Positions 34,040-43,962 of a stretch of 64,000 nt of DNA are shown piece after piece (position 1 is the first letter of the stretch; every line of letters begins with the position of its first letter). The position numbers and the translations under genes were made by a program. This DNA is from Candidatus Pacearchaeota archaeon (GTDB lineage Archaea; Nanobdellota; Nanobdellia; Pacearchaeales; GW2011-AR1), in NCBI GenBank assembly GCA_019659125.1, contig JAIFVX010000003.1, positions 807-64,806 of the forward strand, read 5' to 3'. The notes beneath the pieces are model-generated. The model saw nothing but the letters and a program-made list of their open reading frames with translations, made no database searches and was not told the DNA's origin.

Positions 34040-34225
34040 ATGAATATTCATAGTAAAAAGATAGTGCAATACATCTCCAAAGAAGAGGTAGTAACTAGTT
34101 CTGAAATAGCAAAACTTTTGAAGGTCTCATGGAATACTGCTGAGAAATATCTTCTTGAACTTCTTATCGAGGGAAAAGTCAGGCGTATAAAAAAAGAGGG
34201 GGTTAACATATGGCTCGGAAAATGA
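34040..34225 (+). CDS. Small winged-helix DNA-binding protein
   Basis: 61 aa. VTSSEIAKLLKVSWNTAEKYLLELLIEGKVRRI. Confidence 0.55.
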   Translation: MNIHSKKIVQYISKEEVVTSSEIAKLLKVSWNTAEKYLLELLIEGKVRRIKKEGVNIWLGK

Positions 34226-34971
34226 AACGGGGGCAGATGGCGATATGGATTATCCTCGCCATTGTGTTAGTGGGGACAATGATCTTGTTCTTCACCGTCG
34301 AAAGAAAGGTAAACACGACGCAACCAGAGATACTCAGCCCTGAACTTCAAGTCAGGCAATGCACCAAGGAGGCAGTGAATTCCGTTCTTGCACAAACGCT
34401 TCCGCATGGAGGATTTGTCGAGCCGAGAAATACAAAGCTCTACAAGGGAATCAATATATCTTACCTATGCGACAACATAGGATTCTACAAGCCTTGCATC
34501 AATCAGCATCCTCTTCTCATCAAGGAAATGAACGCTGAGATCAAGGAGAAGATCACCCCTGAACTTCAGACATGCTTCTCTATTATTGATGGAGATTATG
34601 CCTCTCGAAATGCGGAGTTGGAGACTGGTCCATTAAGCTTTGATGTGAGACTCGCTCCTGGAAGAGTGTATGTAGATATCAATAGAAGTATGACTATTAC
34701 ACAGAGAGGATCAAGCAGGACATTCTCATCATACCAGGTTGAAATCCCTAGCCCTGCATATGATCTTGGCTCTATCGCTTCAGAGATTGCAAGTCAGGAA
34801 GCAAAATACTGCTACTTTGAGTATGTTGGATACATGCTTCTTTACCCTTCATTCAGGATATCAAAGACAGCATTACCTGATTCCACTAAGATTTACACTA
34901 TCACTGACAAAAAATCAGGAGATGCTATGAATATCGCCATCAGGAGTTGTGCGATACCTCAAGGAATATGA
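34222..34971 (+). CDS. Type IV pilin-like protein (class III signal), paralog of 38780..39586
   Basis: ATG 34222 forms an ATGA overlap with the wHTH stop (alternative ATG 34210). MKRGQ|MAIWIILAIVLVGTMILFF. Conserved Cys pattern shared with its paralog. Confidence 0.6.
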   Translation: MKRGQMAIWIILAIVLVGTMILFFTVERKVNTTQPEILSPELQVRQCTKEAVNSVLAQTLPHGGFVEPRNTKLYKGINISYLCDNIGFYKPCINQHPLLIKEMNAEIKEKITPELQTCFSIIDGDYASRNAELETGPLSFDVRLAPGRVYVDINRSMTITQRGSSRTFSSYQVEIPSPAYDLGSIASEIASQEAKYCYFEYVGYMLLYPSFRISKTALPDSTKIYTITDKKSGDAMNIAIRSCAIPQGI

Positions 34972-37900
34972 GAACGAACATTATTGTAGGCATTGAAATC
35001 ATACTTCTTATCAGCATGAGCTTTGCAATCTCGTATACTCTTCATGCTGAAGATAGCGTTGCATATGATTACAACCAATCTCCTAAAGATTTAGCATTTA
35101 AGATTATAAATCACCTATTCGGAAAGGGGATAGTTTCGGCACTCGACTCCTCTGATTTGAAGAATGGAGTCTCAACCTGTCTGCTTTCAAAGAATAATAA
35201 GGTATGCCAAGAATATCCCTCCAGTGAATGCGGGGGCAAGTGTACAACTGCATGCATTCCTTCTTCAAAATCCCAAGTTTCTGCATGCAGTGTTGGAACG
35301 TGCGTCGATCCTGTTGAAGGTATATGTCAGCCTGGATCCCCTAAATCTGCATGTGAGAATGATGGGGGACAATGGTATAATGATCCCAACGGAAATATAG
35401 CCCAATGCAAGCTTGGATGTTGCCTCCTTGGAGACCAGGCAAGTTTCATCACTTCACAACAATGTTCGCGTAAATCTGTGCTTCTTGGTGTCACGAGCAA
35501 TTTCAAGCCCGAGATAGGAAGTGAGATCGAATGCCTTGCTCTTGCAAAGACGCAAGAAGAGGGGGCATGCGTCTATGAACAAGACTTTCAAAAAAGCTGC
35601 ACGTTTACTACAAAGGCTTCATGCCTGCAGAAGACAGGAAGAGCAGATTCATTTTATCCAGGATTGCTGTGCTCAAATCCAGCATTGAACACGACATGCA
35701 AGAAACAGGCACGGACTGCATGTGTCGAGGGCAAAGATGAGATCTATTGGTTTGACAGCTGTGGAAACAGGGAGAATATCTATGATGCTAATAAGGCTCA
35801 GAGCTGGAATGAAGGTAAAGTATTAGCAAAACAAGACAGCTGTACACTTGATGCTGGAAAAAATCTTCTTGCCCATCAAAGCAGTTGCGGAAACTGCAAT
35901 TATTTCCTCGGCAGTATATGTGGTCAAAAAGCAGGAAATCAGAAATTATCTGACTCTTCACAAAATGTTGTTTGCAAAGATCTATCCTGTACTGATGCCC
36001 AAGGGAAAAAGAGAAAAAATGGGGAGAGCTGGTGCGCCTATCAGGGTTCTATCGGCGTCGATGAGAAGAACAATCGGGCCACTGATACCCCTGGCAGCAG
36101 CCATTATAGGGAAGTATGTATCGATGGAGTAATACAAACAGAAGCCTGCGCTGATGCACGAAGAGAGGTATGCATCGAATCGCAGACGCAGACAAATTAT
36201 GGAAAAATATCTTCCGCTGCATGCAGGGCTAATCTCTGGACTCAATGCTCTGAGTACAACACCGAAGTCACGGGAGAAGGAAATGCACGAATAGCATCGG
36301 AAAAGCAGAGAGATAACAAATGCTCACAAAATCCTGATTGCTTTGTCAAAAAAGTAGATATTTCTGACAATTTCAAATTCAATCTCTGTGCTCCACGGTA
36401 TCCTCCCGGATTTGATCTTTCGGCCAACTCTGATAGTGCTGAAATGGTGTGCGGGCTTGCTAGCCAGACATGCACTGCCATCTATGTAAAGAAGCTCTTT
36501 TCCGGATGGAAGTGCGAAGCGAATTGTGAATGTGAAGATGCTATCTTCACGGAAAAGATGAATGATCTTTGTATTAGTTTAGGGGATTGTGGGGCAAAAG
36601 TCAATTATAACGGACAATACAGAAAAAATTACCAGGCCTATAACGCTGAAAAAGTTCCTGACTCTTATATTGAAGGATTGAAGAAATATTCTGCAACGGT
36701 AACTGGACAATTCGCGGATGCTGGTTCATATAAGCAATTTTACACAAGCCTAGGGATTCCAAGCGATCTAGGGGCTGCAGGAAAACTTAAGGATCAAAAC
36801 GAGGCTGCACTCAAGGCTGCACTCGTAACAAGTGGCTCGGCAGGCATCCTTGTGCTTGCAGCATATCATGCAGGAATCGCATCATCATTTGGTGCTGGAG
36901 GGGCTGCAATCATCTCAAAGATTCCTATCTTGTCAAGCCTTGTCGGAAAAAGCGCAGGAGTATCGTCTGCTGTAGCAGATCCTACAGGAGAATTTGGAGT
37001 AGCTGCCAATCCCTCTATCGCCGCCTATGGAGGTGCAGTTGCGGGAGCATCTCTAGGTCTTGCTGTCACTTCCCTTTTGATTAAGTTCACAGGCATAGGT
37101 CCAGGGCTTGACCCATACGTGACCAACTCCTTACTTGTTGCAGGGGCTTATTCAGGAGCAATCATTGGAGCAAATATTGGAAGTGGGGGTACAGGGATAT
37201 TCGGTGGACTAGGTGCAAGTGGATCTGCATCACTTGCTTTTGCATGGGTCATAGGAGTCGCAATTGTCCTAGCGATCGTCATATTCAAACTCTTGGGTAT
37301 CGGGAAGACAAAAGAGGTGAAGGTTGAATTCCAGTGCCAGCCCTGGCAGGCACCTACTGGAGGAAAAGCGTGCAAGCAATGTGGAAAAGATGGATTTCCA
37401 TGTACGCCGTATGCCTGCCATTCTCTTGGACAGACATGCGAGTTCGTGAATGAGGGATCGGGACAGGAAGCATGTATTGATAATAATCCTAATGATGCTT
37501 CTCCTCCAGTCATCCATCCACTCAAGAAAGTATTAGCTGAGGGATACAGTTATCAGGACGAAAATGAGAATGGTGTGAAACTTGTGGGACCTGAAGAGTG
37601 TATCAAAGCATATACTCCTGTAACCTTTGGAGTTGGCCTTGACGAACCCGGACAGTGTAAGTATGATGTAGAACATACGCAGTCCTATGATGATATGGAA
37701 TTTTATGTAGGGGATAGAAATCTCTACATCAGGAACCACAGCATGGCATTCACACTTCCTTCGCTTGAAAGTTTGGGGCTTCCAGGGTATGAACCAAGCA
37801 GGAAAGCAAACTATAACATGTACATCAGATGCGAGGATACGAATGGAAATAAGAACGAGAAAGAATATGCGATAAACTTCTGCGTGAAGCCTGGAGAAGA

Positions 37901-38783
37901 CCTCACACCTCCATCCATTTCCCCTGGGGATTACAACGAGTATGTTGCATATAACGCCACGTCAGTTGTTGCAAGCATCTACACAAGCGAGCCAGCTGAA
38001 TGCAAATGGGATACTAATGATAAGGAGTATGATGCTATGGCCTACTCATGGGTGTGCGATAGCGGGTTTGAAAACCAGACGTTTCTTGGATGGAAGTGCT
38101 CAGCAACACTTCCTATAAACAACGATTCTACCTTCTCTGTGCGATGTAGCGATCAGCCCTGGCTGAATGCAAGTACAAAGAGAAATGAAAATCATGAGAG
38201 CTATCCACTTACCTTCAAGAAATCGAAGATTCCTCTTACTATTACCTCCCTGACTCCTGACAACTCGACTATTATCGCCGGCACTGATGCTGTCTCAGTT
38301 GAGGTAGTTGCTAAAGTATCGGGAGGTGCTGATGGGACAGCGAAATGTAGTTACAAGATCGATAATTATTATGTTGATTTCCTGGACACCTTGAAGAGTG
38401 AGAGCAGGAATGTTTTCAACCAGTTCACTCCAGGAGCAAAAGTGCTTGCCGTAAAATGTGAGGATCGGGCAGGAAATAGAGCGGAAAGAACTGCAAGATT
38501 CAGCATTGAGCTTGACAGTGCAGCTCCTGAAGTCACGCGAGTCTACGAAAAGAGCGGTTCACTGGTTGTCATTACCAATGAGCCTGCACGTTGCTCATTT
38601 GTCCATTTCCTAAACAGAACTAGGGATACCTGCAGCTTCCAGTTCCCAGAAGGGGAAGTGTTGGAGGGGAGTGATTTGATCCATACGGCGCCTCTCGAGC
38701 AATTACCCTATTATATCAAGTGCAAGGATCGATTTGAGAATATAGCGGGAGCATGCAGCATGATCGTGCAGGCAAAGGTATGA
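34968..38783 (+). CDS. Giant (1271 aa) Cys-rich membrane/surface protein, fusion of 39583-type and 41836-type proteins
   Basis: ATGA overlap start. Layout: signal anchor IILLISMSFAISY, ~550-aa Cys-rich domain, ~170-aa Gly/Ala-rich hydrophobic region, then a ~480-aa C-terminal region with 4 repeats. Confidence 0.7.
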   Translation: MRTNIIVGIEIILLISMSFAISYTLHAEDSVAYDYNQSPKDLAFKIINHLFGKGIVSALDSSDLKNGVSTCLLSKNNKVCQEYPSSECGGKCTTACIPSSKSQVSACSVGTCVDPVEGICQPGSPKSACENDGGQWYNDPNGNIAQCKLGCCLLGDQASFITSQQCSRKSVLLGVTSNFKPEIGSEIECLALAKTQEEGACVYEQDFQKSCTFTTKASCLQKTGRADSFYPGLLCSNPALNTTCKKQARTACVEGKDEIYWFDSCGNRENIYDANKAQSWNEGKVLAKQDSCTLDAGKNLLAHQSSCGNCNYFLGSICGQKAGNQKLSDSSQNVVCKDLSCTDAQGKKRKNGESWCAYQGSIGVDEKNNRATDTPGSSHYREVCIDGVIQTEACADARREVCIESQTQTNYGKISSAACRANLWTQCSEYNTEVTGEGNARIASEKQRDNKCSQNPDCFVKKVDISDNFKFNLCAPRYPPGFDLSANSDSAEMVCGLASQTCTAIYVKKLFSGWKCEANCECEDAIFTEKMNDLCISLGDCGAKVNYNGQYRKNYQAYNAEKVPDSYIEGLKKYSATVTGQFADAGSYKQFYTSLGIPSDLGAAGKLKDQNEAALKAALVTSGSAGILVLAAYHAGIASSFGAGGAAIISKIPILSSLVGKSAGVSSAVADPTGEFGVAANPSIAAYGGAVAGASLGLAVTSLLIKFTGIGPGLDPYVTNSLLVAGAYSGAIIGANIGSGGTGIFGGLGASGSASLAFAWVIGVAIVLAIVIFKLLGIGKTKEVKVEFQCQPWQAPTGGKACKQCGKDGFPCTPYACHSLGQTCEFVNEGSGQEACIDNNPNDASPPVIHPLKKVLAEGYSYQDENENGVKLVGPEECIKAYTPVTFGVGLDEPGQCKYDVEHTQSYDDMEFYVGDRNLYIRNHSMAFTLPSLESLGLPGYEPSRKANYNMYIRCEDTNGNKNEKEYAINFCVKPGEDLTPPSISPGDYNEYVAYNATSVVASIYTSEPAECKWDTNDKEYDAMAYSWVCDSGFENQTFLGWKCSATLPINNDSTFSVRCSDQPWLNASTKRNENHESYPLTFKKSKIPLTITSLTPDNSTIIAGTDAVSVEVVAKVSGGADGTAKCSYKIDNYYVDFLDTLKSESRNVFNQFTPGAKVLAVKCEDRAGNRAERTARFSIELDSAAPEVTRVYEKSGSLVVITNEPARCSFVHFLNRTRDTCSFQFPEGEVLEGSDLIHTAPLEQLPYYIKCKDRFENIAGACSMIVQAKV

Positions 38784-39586
38784 GACGCAACAATTATAAA
38801 CAAAATTATTCTTTGACTGGCATGCAATTCGGCAAAAGAGGACAGCTTGCGATTATCATTATTATAGCCATTGTCATTATCGCTGCCGTTCTTATCTTTT
38901 TTTTCTATCCACGGATAGGGCCAAGCATATCAACTACCTTCTCTCCCACTAAATATCTGGAATCATGCATCGATCCAGTATTTTCCTCGACCTTGACAAC
39001 AGTAACGAAACAGGGAGGATATCGCGATCCTCAAGGGTTTGCATTATACCAGGGGGAGAAGATAAAATATCTCTGTTACACTTCTGAATATTATACAACC
39101 TGCTCTGTACAGCAACCTATGATCAAGAATCATGTTGAGGATGAACTTGCTCAAGCATTGCGGGAAAAGGCACAAGAGTGCATGCAGGGATTAAAGAGTG
39201 AATACCAATCACGAGGATACAGTGTCTCTTCAGGCCCTGTAAGTAGTGATGTCTCAATTATCCCTGGAAAAATACAGGTTCATTTTATAGCACCTCTAAC
39301 GGTAACAAAGAATGGCGCAACGCAAAGCTTCAAGGGGTTTGATGTCGAGAAAAGCAGCCAGTTATATGATCTCTTGTTCACTGCAAGCAGCATCATCGAT
39401 TACGAATCTTTCTATGGAGATTCTGAGACTACCTTATATCTCCAGTATTATCCTGACTTGAAGATTGAGAAAACAAAACTGAGCGATGGGACAAAGATTT
39501 ATACACTCTCAAATGTTGTGACTAAAGAAACATTTACCTTTGCCTCTAGGAGCCTTTCATGGCCCCCAGGGTATGGATTAGAATGA
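38780..39586 (+). CDS. Type IV pilin-like protein (class III signal), paralog of 34222..34971
   Basis: ATGA overlap start (alternative ATG 38822, MQFGKRGQ|LAIIIIIAIVIIAAVLIFFF). Aligns with its paralog, e.g. GGYRDPQGFALYQGEKIKYLC versus GGFVEPRNTKLYKGINISYLC. Confidence 0.6.
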   Translation: MRRNNYKQNYSLTGMQFGKRGQLAIIIIIAIVIIAAVLIFFFYPRIGPSISTTFSPTKYLESCIDPVFSSTLTTVTKQGGYRDPQGFALYQGEKIKYLCYTSEYYTTCSVQQPMIKNHVEDELAQALREKAQECMQGLKSEYQSRGYSVSSGPVSSDVSIIPGKIQVHFIAPLTVTKNGATQSFKGFDVEKSSQLYDLLFTASSIIDYESFYGDSETTLYLQYYPDLKIEKTKLSDGTKIYTLSNVVTKETFTFASRSLSWPPGYGLE

Positions 39587-41112
39587 TCACAAAAACTCAC
39601 ATGATTCGCCTCGGCATCTTTATTGCAGCATTTGCAGTACTACTCGCATCAGCGTCAGCCTTGAATGCCACTGTATGCTGTGAGAAGACTACCTCTGGAG
39701 AGTTTTGCCAAAACGTCCCTAGCAGCCAATGCGCTCCAGGTTCAAGACAGGTGCAAAGCTCATGTGATTCTGTTTCCTATTGCAAGCCAGGAGTATGCTA
39801 TGATTCTAAGGAAGGGACGTGCTCGAGCAAGACTTCGCAATTAGTATGCAACGCAAACAATGGGACATGGAGTGAGCAGTCGCCTCCTCAATGTGCCTTG
39901 GGATGTTGCACACTCGGGGACCAGGCAGCGTTTGTCTCTCTTGTTCGATGCAAGAAGCTCTCAGGATTTCTTGGTCTGCAAACAAATTATAACAGCGGTA
40001 TAAAAGATGAGACACAATGTATCCTCTCTGTACAAAACCAGGATAAGGGTGCATGTGTTTATACATTTGAATTCGAAAAAACATGTAAGTTCACGACGAG
40101 GGCTGAATGCTCTTCAGGCGTGAATGGAACTGGAAAAGGAGCATTCTTTAAAGGGAAACTATGCTCGGCTGAAGAGCTCGGCACTACGTGCGGACCGACA
40201 AAGCCAGCAAAGACGACATGTATTCCGGGAAAAGATGAGGTGTACTTTGTTGACACGTGTGGAAATGCGGCAAATATCTATGATGCCAGCAAAGTAAATG
40301 ATCCAGACTACTGGACCAATATAAAAGATAAGAGCGAATCCTGTAATCCGAGCGGTGCGAATGCAAACTCCGCCGGATGCGGGAATTGCAATTACTTGCA
40401 GGGAAGTGTATGTAGACCTTCCGAAACAGGAAAAAAAGCTACTTATGGAAGCACTATGTGCGCTAACTTGAACTGCGTGAACACGCAGAACGGTAAATCA
40501 TACAAACATGGAGAGAGCTGGTGCGTGTACAATGATGAGGGAACTACGGGAGAAGGAAAAGATGCTGTAGGAAGCAGATTCTATAAGCATATTTGCATCA
40601 ACGGCGAGGAAGTTCTTGAGCAATGTGCTGACTTCAGACAGGAGGAATGTATCGAAGACAAAATACAGGTACCGCAAGGAACGTTCTCACAGGCAGCATG
40701 CAGGGTCAACCGATGGCAGGATTGTGTTGCACAAACTGATCAGCTTGATTGCCAGAATAAGGACAAGCGTGACTGCTACTGGCAACCTGATGTGAAGCTT
40801 CCTCAATATGAGGCGAATGAGACTATCACGGGAACATGCCTTCCCATAAATCCTCCAGGGTTGAAATTCTGGGAGGGTGAAGAGGCAAAGACTATCTGTG
40901 CGCAGGGCAATGCAGCATGCGTCGTGACTTTTGAGAAAGGATTGTTTGGAGGAGAGAAATGCTCGAAGAATTGCGAGTGCCTTGATGGAACATGGCAGAA
41001 AGAGAGAAGCGATCTCTGCGTAAGCTTGGGAGACTGCGGACCAAATGTAAACTGGATCGGGCAACAAGGGTACAAGCCAGGGTATAATATCTCTATAACA
41101 AAAATAAAGTAG
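39583..41112 (+). CDS. Secreted Cys-rich protein (509 aa), homolog of the N-terminal half of 34968..38783
   Basis: ATGA overlap start. Signal peptide LGIFIAAFAVLLASASALNA. About 43 Cys by my count. Collinear conserved blocks (GCC.LGDQA.F, C.GKDE.Y..D.CGN..NIYDA, CGNCNY, GESWC, LC.SLGDCG). Confidence 0.7.
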   Translation: MITKTHMIRLGIFIAAFAVLLASASALNATVCCEKTTSGEFCQNVPSSQCAPGSRQVQSSCDSVSYCKPGVCYDSKEGTCSSKTSQLVCNANNGTWSEQSPPQCALGCCTLGDQAAFVSLVRCKKLSGFLGLQTNYNSGIKDETQCILSVQNQDKGACVYTFEFEKTCKFTTRAECSSGVNGTGKGAFFKGKLCSAEELGTTCGPTKPAKTTCIPGKDEVYFVDTCGNAANIYDASKVNDPDYWTNIKDKSESCNPSGANANSAGCGNCNYLQGSVCRPSETGKKATYGSTMCANLNCVNTQNGKSYKHGESWCVYNDEGTTGEGKDAVGSRFYKHICINGEEVLEQCADFRQEECIEDKIQVPQGTFSQAACRVNRWQDCVAQTDQLDCQNKDKRDCYWQPDVKLPQYEANETITGTCLPINPPGLKFWEGEEAKTICAQGNAACVVTFEKGLFGGEKCSKNCECLDGTWQKERSDLCVSLGDCGPNVNWIGQQGYKPGYNISITKIK

Positions 41113-41179
41113 ATTTTGTACTTTCTCAATAGTGATAACAAATAGTAAGATTTAAATATTCATCATTAGTATGATTTCT

Positions 41180-41794
41180 ATGAGAAATTCAATCAAAAAG
41201 AATCTTGCAATGATTGTCCTAGGTTCTACTATGGCTGCCGGACTATCAGGATGCGGTGCTGCAATGCAGATGGCTGCTCCTTTCTCTAAGACTGTAGAAG
41301 CTGGTATGGCTCTTAATGCGGCAGGTCAGGCAGTAACTGCCTATGAAGTTGCTGAAATGAATAAAACTGAGGTCAACGTTACGGTACAGCAGCCTCAACC
41401 TAATCATCCTGTATATCATAAATATCTTGGAGCACTCGAGATCTGCAACGACCCGGTAGGAGGGACCATTGTACTTACTACCTGCAAAGAATTCAAGGAT
41501 TATGATGGTGATGGGATTATAATGTTTCCCCATGAATATAGAGGGAAAAAAGAACGTTTTTCTAAAAACGAGAATATTTCTATCGCTGTTGGTGTAGAGA
41601 ATAAGGTAAGTGGCATTCATTATATTCTTAAGGATGGGGAAAATAAAACAATTAAGGACTTCTTGATAGAACAGGACTCGTATGGAACGCATGACGACTT
41701 TAAAGAGGGAGAGCTTGAAACAGGCACCTATACTGCTGAATTTTATCTCAAAAACAGGCCTCTTGGAAAGCTCAAATTTACTGTAGAGGACTAA
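41180..41794 (+). CDS. Putative lipoprotein (lipobox LSGC)
   Basis: MRNSIKKNLAMIVLGSTMAAGLSGC. ATG 41180 fits TATA-like tttaaata at 41151-41158 (track start is 41171). Confidence 0.5.
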   Translation: MRNSIKKNLAMIVLGSTMAAGLSGCGAAMQMAAPFSKTVEAGMALNAAGQAVTAYEVAEMNKTEVNVTVQQPQPNHPVYHKYLGALEICNDPVGGTIVLTTCKEFKDYDGDGIIMFPHEYRGKKERFSKNENISIAVGVENKVSGIHYILKDGENKTIKDFLIEQDSYGTHDDFKEGELETGTYTAEFYLKNRPLGKLKFTVED

Positions 41795-41835: not shown

Positions 41836-43962
41836 ATGCAAAAGGTGCGCAGAAAAATAGGTGTTTTTCCAGTAGTTTTCATCCAACTATTCCTTCTTGT
41901 CAGCATGAGTTTTGCTGTTGCGTTCATCATTTCAAGCGAGAGTGTCTCTGCTGTCGATCCTGGAATTACTAACGTTCCTACAAAGTCTGCCCCACTCCCT
42001 AATAGGCCGTCTATCGGAGATGATACACCTAATTTGGGACAAGCGGCGCCGGCCGCTGCAGGAACGGGTGGTGGTACCTTGACAAAGGCAACAGGAGGAA
42101 ATGCATTCAAGAATATCTATGGTGGACATCTGTTTGGCATTGGCCCTGAGAGTTCTCTTGTTGCAGGATTAGCATGGGCAGCGACTGCATATTTTGCAGT
42201 AAAACTAGTGGCAGGATTGTTTGGAGCAAGTCCAGGCCTTACCAATGCGCTTGCAACATCGGTTGGAGTTGCTGCAGGGGTTGGTGGATTCCTTCAGTCT
42301 GCATGGGCTGGACAGGCAACTACCTTAGCGAATAATCCTATTCTTAGTATTTTTGTTGAGCATCCGTGGATTACTAGCATTGGGATTGGAGTGGTTATTT
42401 TTGTATTAACGTATAGATCTGAGAAAAAACAACTTGTTAGCTTCCAATGCCTGCCTTACGAGCCCCCATTAGGAGGAAGCCAATGCGAGCAGTGCAATAA
42501 AGATCCTTTTAGACCCTGCTCTGAATATCGATGCCAATCCCTGGGGCAGGCATGCAAGCTCTTGAATCCTGGAACGACAAATGAGAAGTGCACGTGGGTA
42601 AGCAAGTTTGATGTCAACTCTCCGGTGATTGAAGTCTGGAACCTGGCACTTTCTCCTCAAGGATTAAAATTCACACCCGATGATGCAATACGTCCTCCAA
42701 ACCGTGGAGTAAAAATACAGGCATCAAACGGTGGATGCTTGCCTGCATATACTCCATTGAAGTTTGGACTGCAGACGAATGAACCTGCACAGTGCAAGAT
42801 CGATTACAACAATAACGCATCGTTCAAAGACATGCAATATTATTTTGGAGAAAGCAATTATTATGAATACAATCATACGCAGACATTACGTCTTCCAGGA
42901 CCAGATACTGGAGTGCAAGGAACGCTATCACCGATCTTACAGAATGATGGGACGTTCAACCTCTATGTTCGATGCCAGGATGCAAATGGAAATGCTAATG
43001 TTGATTTGTTTGCTATAAACTTCTGCGTTGATAAGGGTCCTGACACAACCCCTCCTTTGATTGAAGCAACTTCAATTATTTCAGGAAGTCCTGTCCGGTA
43101 CAACGCTGATAATGTGCCGATGCAAGTGTTCGTGAATGAACCTGCACAATGTAAATGGAGCAGATCGGATAAGGATTACAAGGATATGGAGAACTCAATG
43201 CAGTGCGGCACTGAAAGCTATCAGGTCAATGCAAACTTGCAATACACCTGCTCGGGAAACCTTACAGGAATCAAGAACAGAGAGAGCAATACATTCTACT
43301 TCAGATGTGAAGACCAGCCAAACAAAGCTGAGAGCCAAAGGAATCCTATGCGGCAGAGTACTGCTCTTGTACTACGAGGAAGCCAGCCATTGAACATTGT
43401 GAGCGCACAGCCTAACGGAACAATCTATGGAAGCACTGAGACAATTCCTATGACTCTTTCAGTTCAAACGGATGATGGAAGCGATGAAGGGAAAGCAACC
43501 TGCTACTTCTCATCAACAGGAGCACAAAACAGTTACACCTCAATGATTAATACCAATGACTTCAAGCATAGTCAGCCTCTTGACCTGCCTTCAGGAACAT
43601 ACACTTATTTCTTCAGATGTATTGATGCTGGAGGAAATGCTGCAGATGCTAAGATCTCATTTAGTGTTATCGCTGATAGAGAAGCACCTAGTGTAACACG
43701 AGTATATCGGGATAGCACCGATAGTATGAAAGTCATAACCAATGAAGATGCTGAATGTGCGTACTCATTAAATAGCTGCGACTTCACTCTTAAAGAAGGA
43801 ACTGCGTTGCTTTCAACGCCAAGCAATAAAGTTGCCCATTTCGGACCTTGGAAACCAGGAGTGACGTACTACATAAAATGTAAGGACTTGCTAGGAAATG
43901 AACCAAGTCCTAACGAGTGCAGTCTTATTGCGAGTGCAACGCAGATTGCGAAGCAGCTCTAG
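41836..43962 (+). CDS. Membrane/surface protein (708 aa), homolog of the C-terminal half of 34968..38783
   Basis: Signal anchor LFLLVSMSFAVAF (compare LLISMSFAISY), Gly/Ala-rich hydrophobic region, then FQCLPYEPPLGGSQCEQC... and 4 repeats collinear with the fused protein. Confidence 0.7.
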   Translation: MQKVRRKIGVFPVVFIQLFLLVSMSFAVAFIISSESVSAVDPGITNVPTKSAPLPNRPSIGDDTPNLGQAAPAAAGTGGGTLTKATGGNAFKNIYGGHLFGIGPESSLVAGLAWAATAYFAVKLVAGLFGASPGLTNALATSVGVAAGVGGFLQSAWAGQATTLANNPILSIFVEHPWITSIGIGVVIFVLTYRSEKKQLVSFQCLPYEPPLGGSQCEQCNKDPFRPCSEYRCQSLGQACKLLNPGTTNEKCTWVSKFDVNSPVIEVWNLALSPQGLKFTPDDAIRPPNRGVKIQASNGGCLPAYTPLKFGLQTNEPAQCKIDYNNNASFKDMQYYFGESNYYEYNHTQTLRLPGPDTGVQGTLSPILQNDGTFNLYVRCQDANGNANVDLFAINFCVDKGPDTTPPLIEATSIISGSPVRYNADNVPMQVFVNEPAQCKWSRSDKDYKDMENSMQCGTESYQVNANLQYTCSGNLTGIKNRESNTFYFRCEDQPNKAESQRNPMRQSTALVLRGSQPLNIVSAQPNGTIYGSTETIPMTLSVQTDDGSDEGKATCYFSSTGAQNSYTSMINTNDFKHSQPLDLPSGTYTYFFRCIDAGGNAADAKISFSVIADREAPSVTRVYRDSTDSMKVITNEDAECAYSLNSCDFTLKEGTALLSTPSNKVAHFGPWKPGVTYYIKCKDLLGNEPSPNECSLIASATQIAKQL

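Follow-up and report, generated by a model that had tools for sequence, protein, structure and literature searches.

A probable four-domain stalk of diverged, cysteine-paired Big_13-type modules in an uncharacterized envelope protein family of Pacearchaeota/Woesearchaeota-type archaea

We analysed a window of 64,000 nucleotides from a Candidatus Pacearchaeota archaeon (assembly GCA_019659125.1, contig JAIFVX010000003.1, positions 807 to 64,806 of the forward strand) in which two large proteins, here called A and B, each end in a four-fold repeat of a Cys-containing module. The genome comprises 809 kb in 5 contigs, and A, B, a third protein, C, and their partners form one same-strand cluster between flanking housekeeping genes; unless a contig is named, positions are those of the window on the plus strand. 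The cluster begins with a pilin-like partner of 253 aa (34210-34971), which has KRGQ and then a hydrophobic helix at its N-terminus, a motif resembling a class III signal. Protein A follows as an open reading frame (ORF) of 1278 aa from TTG (34947-38783), probably translated as 1271 aa from the ATG at 34968. A second pilin-like partner is encoded by an ORF of 277 aa (38753-39586), the likely start being the methionine of MQFGKRGQ near 38822. Protein C (517 aa, 39559-41112, probable start 39583) consists of a domain with 43 Cys and is predicted to be secreted or N-anchored. Between C and B lies a 207-aa protein with the lipobox LSGC (41171-41794), and the ORF of protein B (708 aa) occupies 41836-43962.

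From N- to C-terminus, A is laid out as a signal peptide, a 43-Cys domain, a Gly/Ala-rich membrane region, a 7-Cys knot and four Ig-like modules. B begins with a signal peptide or anchor, followed by a disordered linker, about three membrane helices, a 7-Cys knot and the four modules. BLASTP aligned the N-terminal half of A with C at 36% identity (E 4e-104) and its C-terminal half with B at 33% identity (E 1e-88). Since the two halves match in this way, A is judged to be the fused form of C plus B, with C and B as split-form paralogs of its halves. At least 888 homologs of B were found, all without a name and in Nanoarchaeota/Pacearchaeota-type records. The knot of A (37314-37496, Cys positions 797-843) separates the last membrane helix from module 1; that of B covers residues 200-257 (42433-42606) and was modelled with a predicted local distance difference test score (pLDDT) of 92-95. 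A hidden Markov model (HMM) of the knot matches all family members, and exactly 7 Cys are present in 121 of 121 homologs.

The four modules at the ends of A and B are collinear and about 85 to 145 aa long. BLASTP of each protein against itself returned no internal match at E ≤ 10; the repeat therefore lies below pairwise detection and profile methods were needed. We aligned B with 120 homologs (121 sequences in all) and split the alignment at the four module boundaries to obtain module profiles. Compared with hhalign, all six pairs of module profiles matched with E 2e-9 to 1e-4 and a probability of 56-96%. The controls together gave E 0.01-0.68. Reversed module profiles matched at E 0.01-0.45 with a probability of at most 4.2%, and the 7-Cys knot, with a probability of at most 1.1%, is unrelated to the modules. 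Nineteen modules, from the window and two related loci, could be aligned collinearly, and in all of them both signature Cys and the signature Asp are invariant. A regular expression for the signature found 5 matches among the 493,328 residues of the six-frame ORFs of the genome, all of them in these two proteins; shuffled ectodomains yielded 0.001 on average. A search of the source genome with the module HMM revealed no third carrier besides A and B. The four-fold repeat that an earlier, sequence-only reading had noticed in both paralogs was thus borne out by the hhalign profiles, the 19-module alignment and the signature expression, and all eight motif strings quoted there were found in the translations of A and B. 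That reading had drawn the repeat as A residues 795-1278 and B residues 203-708, ranges that include the 7-Cys knot before module 1.

In A, module 1 spans 37497-37901 (core 37560-37901; motifs DEPGQCKY and YIRCEDTNGN; independent E-value with the module HMM 2.4e-23), module 2 spans 37902-38237 (SEPAECKW and SVRCSDQP; 2.2e-16), module 3 spans 38238-38516 (GTAKCSY and AVKCEDRAGN; 2.3e-4) and module 4 spans 38517-38762 (NEPARCSF and YIKCKDRFEN; 4.6e-8). The corresponding modules of B are residues 258-403, with the core from 300 (42607-43044; NEPAQCKI and YVRCQDANGN), residues 404-516 (43045-43383; NEPAQCKW and YFRCEDQP), residues 517-615 (43384-43680; GKATCYF and FFRCIDAGGN) and residues 616-700 (43681-43935; NEDAECAY and YIKCKDLLGN). 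The sequence-only reading had assigned one Cys pair to each module. This count is right for module 3, which has two invariant Cys, but modules 1, 2 and 4 have four each. With every Cys invariant and an even number of them in each module, a disulfide staple is plausible.

Across proteins, modules that share a position have 44-46% identity, as against 17-20% for modules at different positions. At the DNA level no repeat between modules was detected, except for one 21-nt match coding for NEPAQCK in modules 1 and 2 of B, and a recent duplication was rejected on this ground. The four-module layout is also kept in fused paralogs of distant genera. Because of these identities, the missing DNA repeat and the conserved layout, the quadruplication is taken to be ancient and older than the split between A and B. 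As a separate observation, the NEPAQCK codons of B modules 1 and 2 (42777-42797 and 43134-43154) share 19 of 21 bases in modules that are otherwise about 20% identical.

To describe the fold, we used an AlphaFold2 model of B built from the 121-sequence alignment. The mean pLDDT was 85.1, with values mostly of 90-98 over residues 210-700, and this region was all-beta with 6-7 strands in each module. Foldseek against the PDB returned 498 matches at E ≤ 1e-3, the top ones at E 5e-12 to 3e-8. These were tandem Ig, FN3 and cadherin ectodomains, of which the best was PTP-delta Ig1-Fn2 (E 5.4e-12, probability 1.00), followed by contactin, desmoglein and the grappling-hook protein GhpA. The confidence, the strand number and the nature of these matches support the Ig-like beta-sandwich proposed from the sequence. 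In the strand order assigned by DSSP, the first signature Cys starts strand C, after strand B and the NEPA turn, and the second lies near the end of strand F. Strands C and F are adjacent in one sheet in an FN3-like topology. The Cys pair thus appears to be an intra-sheet C-F pair and not the classical inter-sheet B-F pin, as read from the strand order of the model and not from coordinates.

Pfam and NCBIfam scans of A, B and the module consensus sequences gave no model at its cut-off. The best direct Pfam match was Big_13 (PF19077) on residues 562-611 of B, in module 3, with 21.3 bits (E 3.9e-4) against a cut-off of 27. DUF4625 (E 3.5e-4) and Y_Y_Y (E 2.7e-3) also matched below threshold; all three families are Ig-like, and all were aligned to the F-G hairpin. 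The consensus of the module 3 family scored 21.2 bits with Big_13 and that of all modules 18 bits, and a precomputed PF19077 match is recorded for about a quarter of the B homologs listed. The same scans gave no fn3 (PF00041) match on the window modules. HYR (PF02494, cut-off 21.7 bits) was likewise absent from the window modules and reached 12.6-13.7 bits in relatives. Searches of PDB sequences with profiles of the whole family and of the module returned nothing significant. To reach beyond direct matches, we searched 1.84 billion representative proteins with the profile of the 19 modules. It matched 5,295 proteins at E ≤ 1e-3, of which 966 reached E ≤ 1e-30, and at the top stood the four-module family together with giant proteins carrying 7-31 copies. 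One of the top matches has PSCyt3/PSD domains besides the module. Copies in three of these matches (P0242, P0244 and P0248) were found at E 1e-14 to 1e-20. In the giant proteins the module matches coincide with the best Big_13 stretches, and nearly every copy has both signature motifs. Scanned singly against Big_13 itself, three of these copies scored 31.0, 38.3 and 40.3 bits (cut-off 27), the alignment covering positions 20-102 of the 102 in the profile.

Because the module profile retrieves copies that themselves pass the Big_13 cut-off, we assign the repeat to the Big_13 type: by sequence homology the modules are effectively a diverged, Cys-pair subtype of PF19077 and not a new domain. The sequence-only reading had recognized no named domain, a view that a match of the repeat HMM to a known Pfam or InterPro domain was to overturn. 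It was correct in that the window modules all fall short of the Pfam and NCBIfam cut-offs, but the retrieved copies are bona fide members of Big_13; the HMM leads to a known Pfam domain in substance, through these copies, and not by a direct match above threshold.

We hold with good confidence that the repeat reflects an ancient four-fold duplication of a Cys-pair domain of Big_13 type, and that the modules form the stalk arm of an uncharacterized DPANN envelope family. One Ig-like (E-set) domain of Big_13 type with a Cys pair would have been duplicated in tandem to give four. Judged from the strand order, the motif NEPAxC would form the B-C turn and the start of strand C, and the motif [FY]x[RK]CxDxxGN strand F and the F-G turn. 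The two signature Cys would then form an intra-sheet disulfide that clamps the BC/FG-loop end of each domain. Placed after the 7-Cys knot, the four domains would make up a rigid arm about four Ig domains long that extends outward from the cell membrane, braced by disulfides and probably N-glycosylated, much as Big_13 and other Ig-like domains form stalk arrays in bacterial surface proteins. The arm would work with the 43-Cys domain, fused in cis in A and separate in C plus B, and with the pilin-like partner. The assembly as a whole may scaffold the surface, anchor a filament or make contact with a partner cell.

The partner proteins bear on this role. The two pilin-like partners are 33% identical (E 2e-40); their N-terminal [KR][KR]GQ and hydrophobic helix are conserved across genera, and homologs adjoin large fused genes in distant genera. 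Genes for an A24 prepilin peptidase and three T2SSE ATPases lie elsewhere in the genome, and no gene for a pilus assembly ATPase or platform was found in or beside the locus. A third, longer pilin-like relative was observed in a 620-aa frame on the minus strand outside the window (contig C1:415748-417607), with the same N-terminus, DKRGQLAIIIIIA, and a phmmer E of 1e-10. Protein C has at least 1437 homologs at 60-82% identity, and its AlphaFold2 model has a pLDDT of 88.8 and a predicted template modelling score of 0.75. Fold searches with this 43-Cys domain, whose counterpart in the N-terminal half of A lies at 35050-36700, gave no significant match (best E 0.3 in the PDB and 0.26 in BFVD), and the domain may have a new fold. 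A likeness to viral fusion or attachment glycoproteins was considered and rejected, the matches being weak and at noise level. The 207-aa lipobox protein is homologous to 288-aa lipobox proteins (LSSC and ICGC) of other genomes (L001 9075-9953 and L003 9061-9927), whose genes directly precede the B homologs there. The split form has in it a third partner that is conserved.

Such partners could suggest a filament resembling a type IV pilus, whose tip or base would be built from the arm, the 43-Cys domain and the pilin-like protein, with the Ig modules as adhesin shaft. We consider this unlikely, but it has points in its favor: the conserved KRGQ-helix start of a partner that is co-located with the large genes, and the peptidase and ATPases encoded in the genome. 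On the other hand, A and B have a multi-helix membrane region of their own, unlike PilY1, the 43-Cys domain resembles neither the PilY1 beta-propeller nor any solved structure, and the locus has housekeeping flanks in place of assembly genes.

To assess the distribution of the family, we sampled 201 genomes of the phylum. The full architecture was found within the class of the window only. Family matches at E ≤ 1e-5 occurred in 67 of the 201 genomes, about 28 of them strong; the strong matches were mostly frames of 1000-1440 aa, that is, the fused form, often as two or three paralogs in tandem, and the split form was seen in the family to which the window itself belongs. The A/B host protein family is uncharacterized and, as sampled here, limited to Pacearchaeota/Woesearchaeota-type archaea; we found no description of it in the published literature. 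In general terms, Woese- and Pacearchaeota have been stated to share unannotated membrane or extracellular families (PMC8204110).

These data also bear on the idea that A and B, with C, are an S-layer or S-layer anchor in which the Ig modules serve as stalk or lattice domains. Tandem Ig-like domains, a membrane anchor, conserved glycosylation sequons, the presence in many genomes of two or three tandem paralogs and a Deinococcus S-layer protein among the Foldseek matches (8cka, E 1.6e-8) would all suit such a role. We nevertheless think it distinctly unlikely, as a match was found in only about a third of the sampled genomes of the class, with strong ones in about 28 of 201, and an identity of 50-80% is high for an S-layer protein.

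The module has a wider distribution than the family, occurring single or paired in other large proteins of the class. In one genome (G065), two adjacent proteins of about 700 aa (L011 691-2778 and 2782-4902) carry just one canonical Cys-pair module (TNENATCKYS and YYVRCEDTSGN), together with dockerin-like repeats of DVNGDGVVN and two large, unassigned repeated domains. An NCBI record of 1822 aa (P0245, on a contig of 171,598 bp) combines eight module copies with Laminin_G_3 and PSCyt3/PSD4/PSD2. Domains of this kind are characteristic of Planctomycetes-type bacteria, and the module may therefore also occur outside the archaea.

We then weighed the evidence that the knot and the modules are extracellular. 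Three or four N-x-S/T sequons are conserved in position. The NHT sequon of module 1 (B N346, 42871-42879) is present in 118 of 121 homologs and is NHS at the equivalent position of A, and a second, at B N527, in 111 of 121; either could be a site of N-glycosylation. A homolog of VKOR is encoded outside the window (contig C1:275129-275491, 61.9 bits, above the cut-off); of the 201 genomes sampled from the class, 84 have one. The Cys count is 21 in the B-type ectodomain, 43 in 105 of 120 sequences of the C family and 43 + 21 = 64 in the fused protein A. With each half odd and the sum even, this parity would fit one disulfide between domains or subunits. Because of the signal sequences, the invariant and even Cys counts per module, the conserved sequons, VKOR and the pilin-like and lipobox neighbors, we infer that the knot and modules are probably extracellular and would carry disulfides.

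Several observations weigh against an extracellular arm of Big_13 type. The overall density of sequons is 1.17 per 100 residues, compared with 1.24 expected from composition. The association of VKOR with the family was not significant (16 of 28 versus 68 of 173 genomes, p = 0.098). A Lys-rich stretch (consensus YKKEKKK; B residues 193-200, about 42410-42440, and its equivalent in A) lies between the last membrane helix and the knot; together with a simple helix count it would, by the positive-inside rule, place the knot and modules in the cytoplasm. We consider this counter-signal outweighed by the features listed above. Finally, the membership of the window modules in Big_13 is one of transitive homology, none of them reaching the gathering score.

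It could be argued that the modules are a genuinely new, unnamed family that is Ig-like in fold alone and without homology to existing Pfam families. The scores of A, B and the consensus sequences under every Pfam and NCBIfam cut-off and the empty profile searches of PDB sequences would agree with this. It is nevertheless quite improbable: the copies retrieved with the family's own profile (E 1e-14 to 1e-20) score above the Big_13 cut-off along the whole model and have both signature Cys and the DxxGN turn in common with the modules, and the direct matches below threshold point to Big_13 too. That the knot and modules are cytoplasmic, their conserved Cys binding metal instead of forming disulfides, is hardly credible in spite of the Lys-rich stretch, the CxxC-like spacing and odd Cys count of the knot and the three hydrophobic helices that a simple count gives B after an outside-facing linker, because Big_13-type domains are extracellular wherever characterized (PMC9704523), the Cys pairs occur one per sandwich without clustering into sites, the sequons are conserved, the other Cys-rich domain of the fused protein comes after a signal peptide, and the parity of 43 + 21 = 64 fits a shared oxidizing compartment.

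Returning to the Big_13-type stalk arm, a more specific version can be put forward tentatively, and we regard it as doubtful in its full extent. In this version an envelope machine peculiar to Pacearchaeota/Woesearchaeota-type archaea would have the modules as its stalk; its head, the 43-Cys domain of unmatched fold, would be tied to the stalk by one inter-domain disulfide, and together with the pilin-like subunit the machine would serve contact with a host or partner cell. A disulfide between head and stalk would be allowed by the parity of 43 + 21 = 64 in the fused and in the split form.

The motif that was new to the eye probably represents a Cys-stapled, strongly diverged Big_13 subtype that is missed by the current Pfam thresholds. 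With a dedicated model of the module, annotation would extend to several thousand proteins of archaea (5,295 representatives match at E ≤ 1e-3). If the C-terminal half is taken as a four-domain Ig stalk, domain boundaries are fixed for expression and structure work, and the 43-Cys domain becomes the likely candidate for the functional head. Of broader interest is the host family, an envelope protein without functional annotation that is conserved, with several paralogs, in archaea of ultrasmall size and presumably symbiotic habit; this family, and above all its 43-Cys domain, is more interesting than the repeat itself.

Among known systems, the type IVa pilus with its complex of minor pilins and PilY1 at the tip resembles the locus in that a pilin-like gene, with an N-terminus like a class III signal, adjoins that of a very large surface protein, and in that a prepilin peptidase and ATPases are encoded, here elsewhere in the genome. 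It differs in that the large protein of the window is itself membrane-embedded and that the locus is without assembly genes; of the hallmarks of a tip complex the signal-like motif is present, and assembly genes at the locus and a PilY1-like propeller are absent. FN3-like domains (PF00041; Pur_ac_phosph_N, PF16656; FN3 of chitinase A1, PDB 1k85) share with the modules the strand order and the E-F-G pattern H...L..L..G..Y.Y.V....D..GN. The matches to them, those of relatives included, were weak (E 0.003-1.4) and none significant, and FN3 strings occurred among the Foldseek matches. FN3 domains are without the conserved Cys pair.

Big_13 is an E-set domain of stalk arrays in bacterial surface proteins, exemplified by the BIg repeats of Salmonella SiiE (PDB 2yn3; PMC9704523). 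The modules have in common with this family (clan CL0159) a beta-sandwich of about 90-100 aa, an F-G hairpin with Y-x-Y-x-V-x-x-x-D-x-x-G-N and the arrangement in tandem surface arrays. They differ from it in scoring at most 21.3 bits, below the cut-off, and their invariant Cys pair, with a second pair in three modules, may also set them apart from ordinary members. They are also only 17-20% identical to one another instead of near-identical repeats, and they are C-terminal to a multi-helix membrane anchor and not part of a secreted giant adhesin. A further likeness, in motif, is to the giant proteins of Woesearchaeota and Altiarchaeota, such as P0246 (6033 aa, Woesearchaeota), P0248 (Altiarchaeota, recorded as 'Ig-like domain-containing protein') and P0241 (31 copies), in which nearly all copies are Cys-pair modules with TNE.A.C and YYVRC.D..GN. 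The giants string together many similar copies and have no knot, Gly/Ala-rich membrane region or 43-Cys domain, whereas the family in the window has four fixed modules, each specific to its position.

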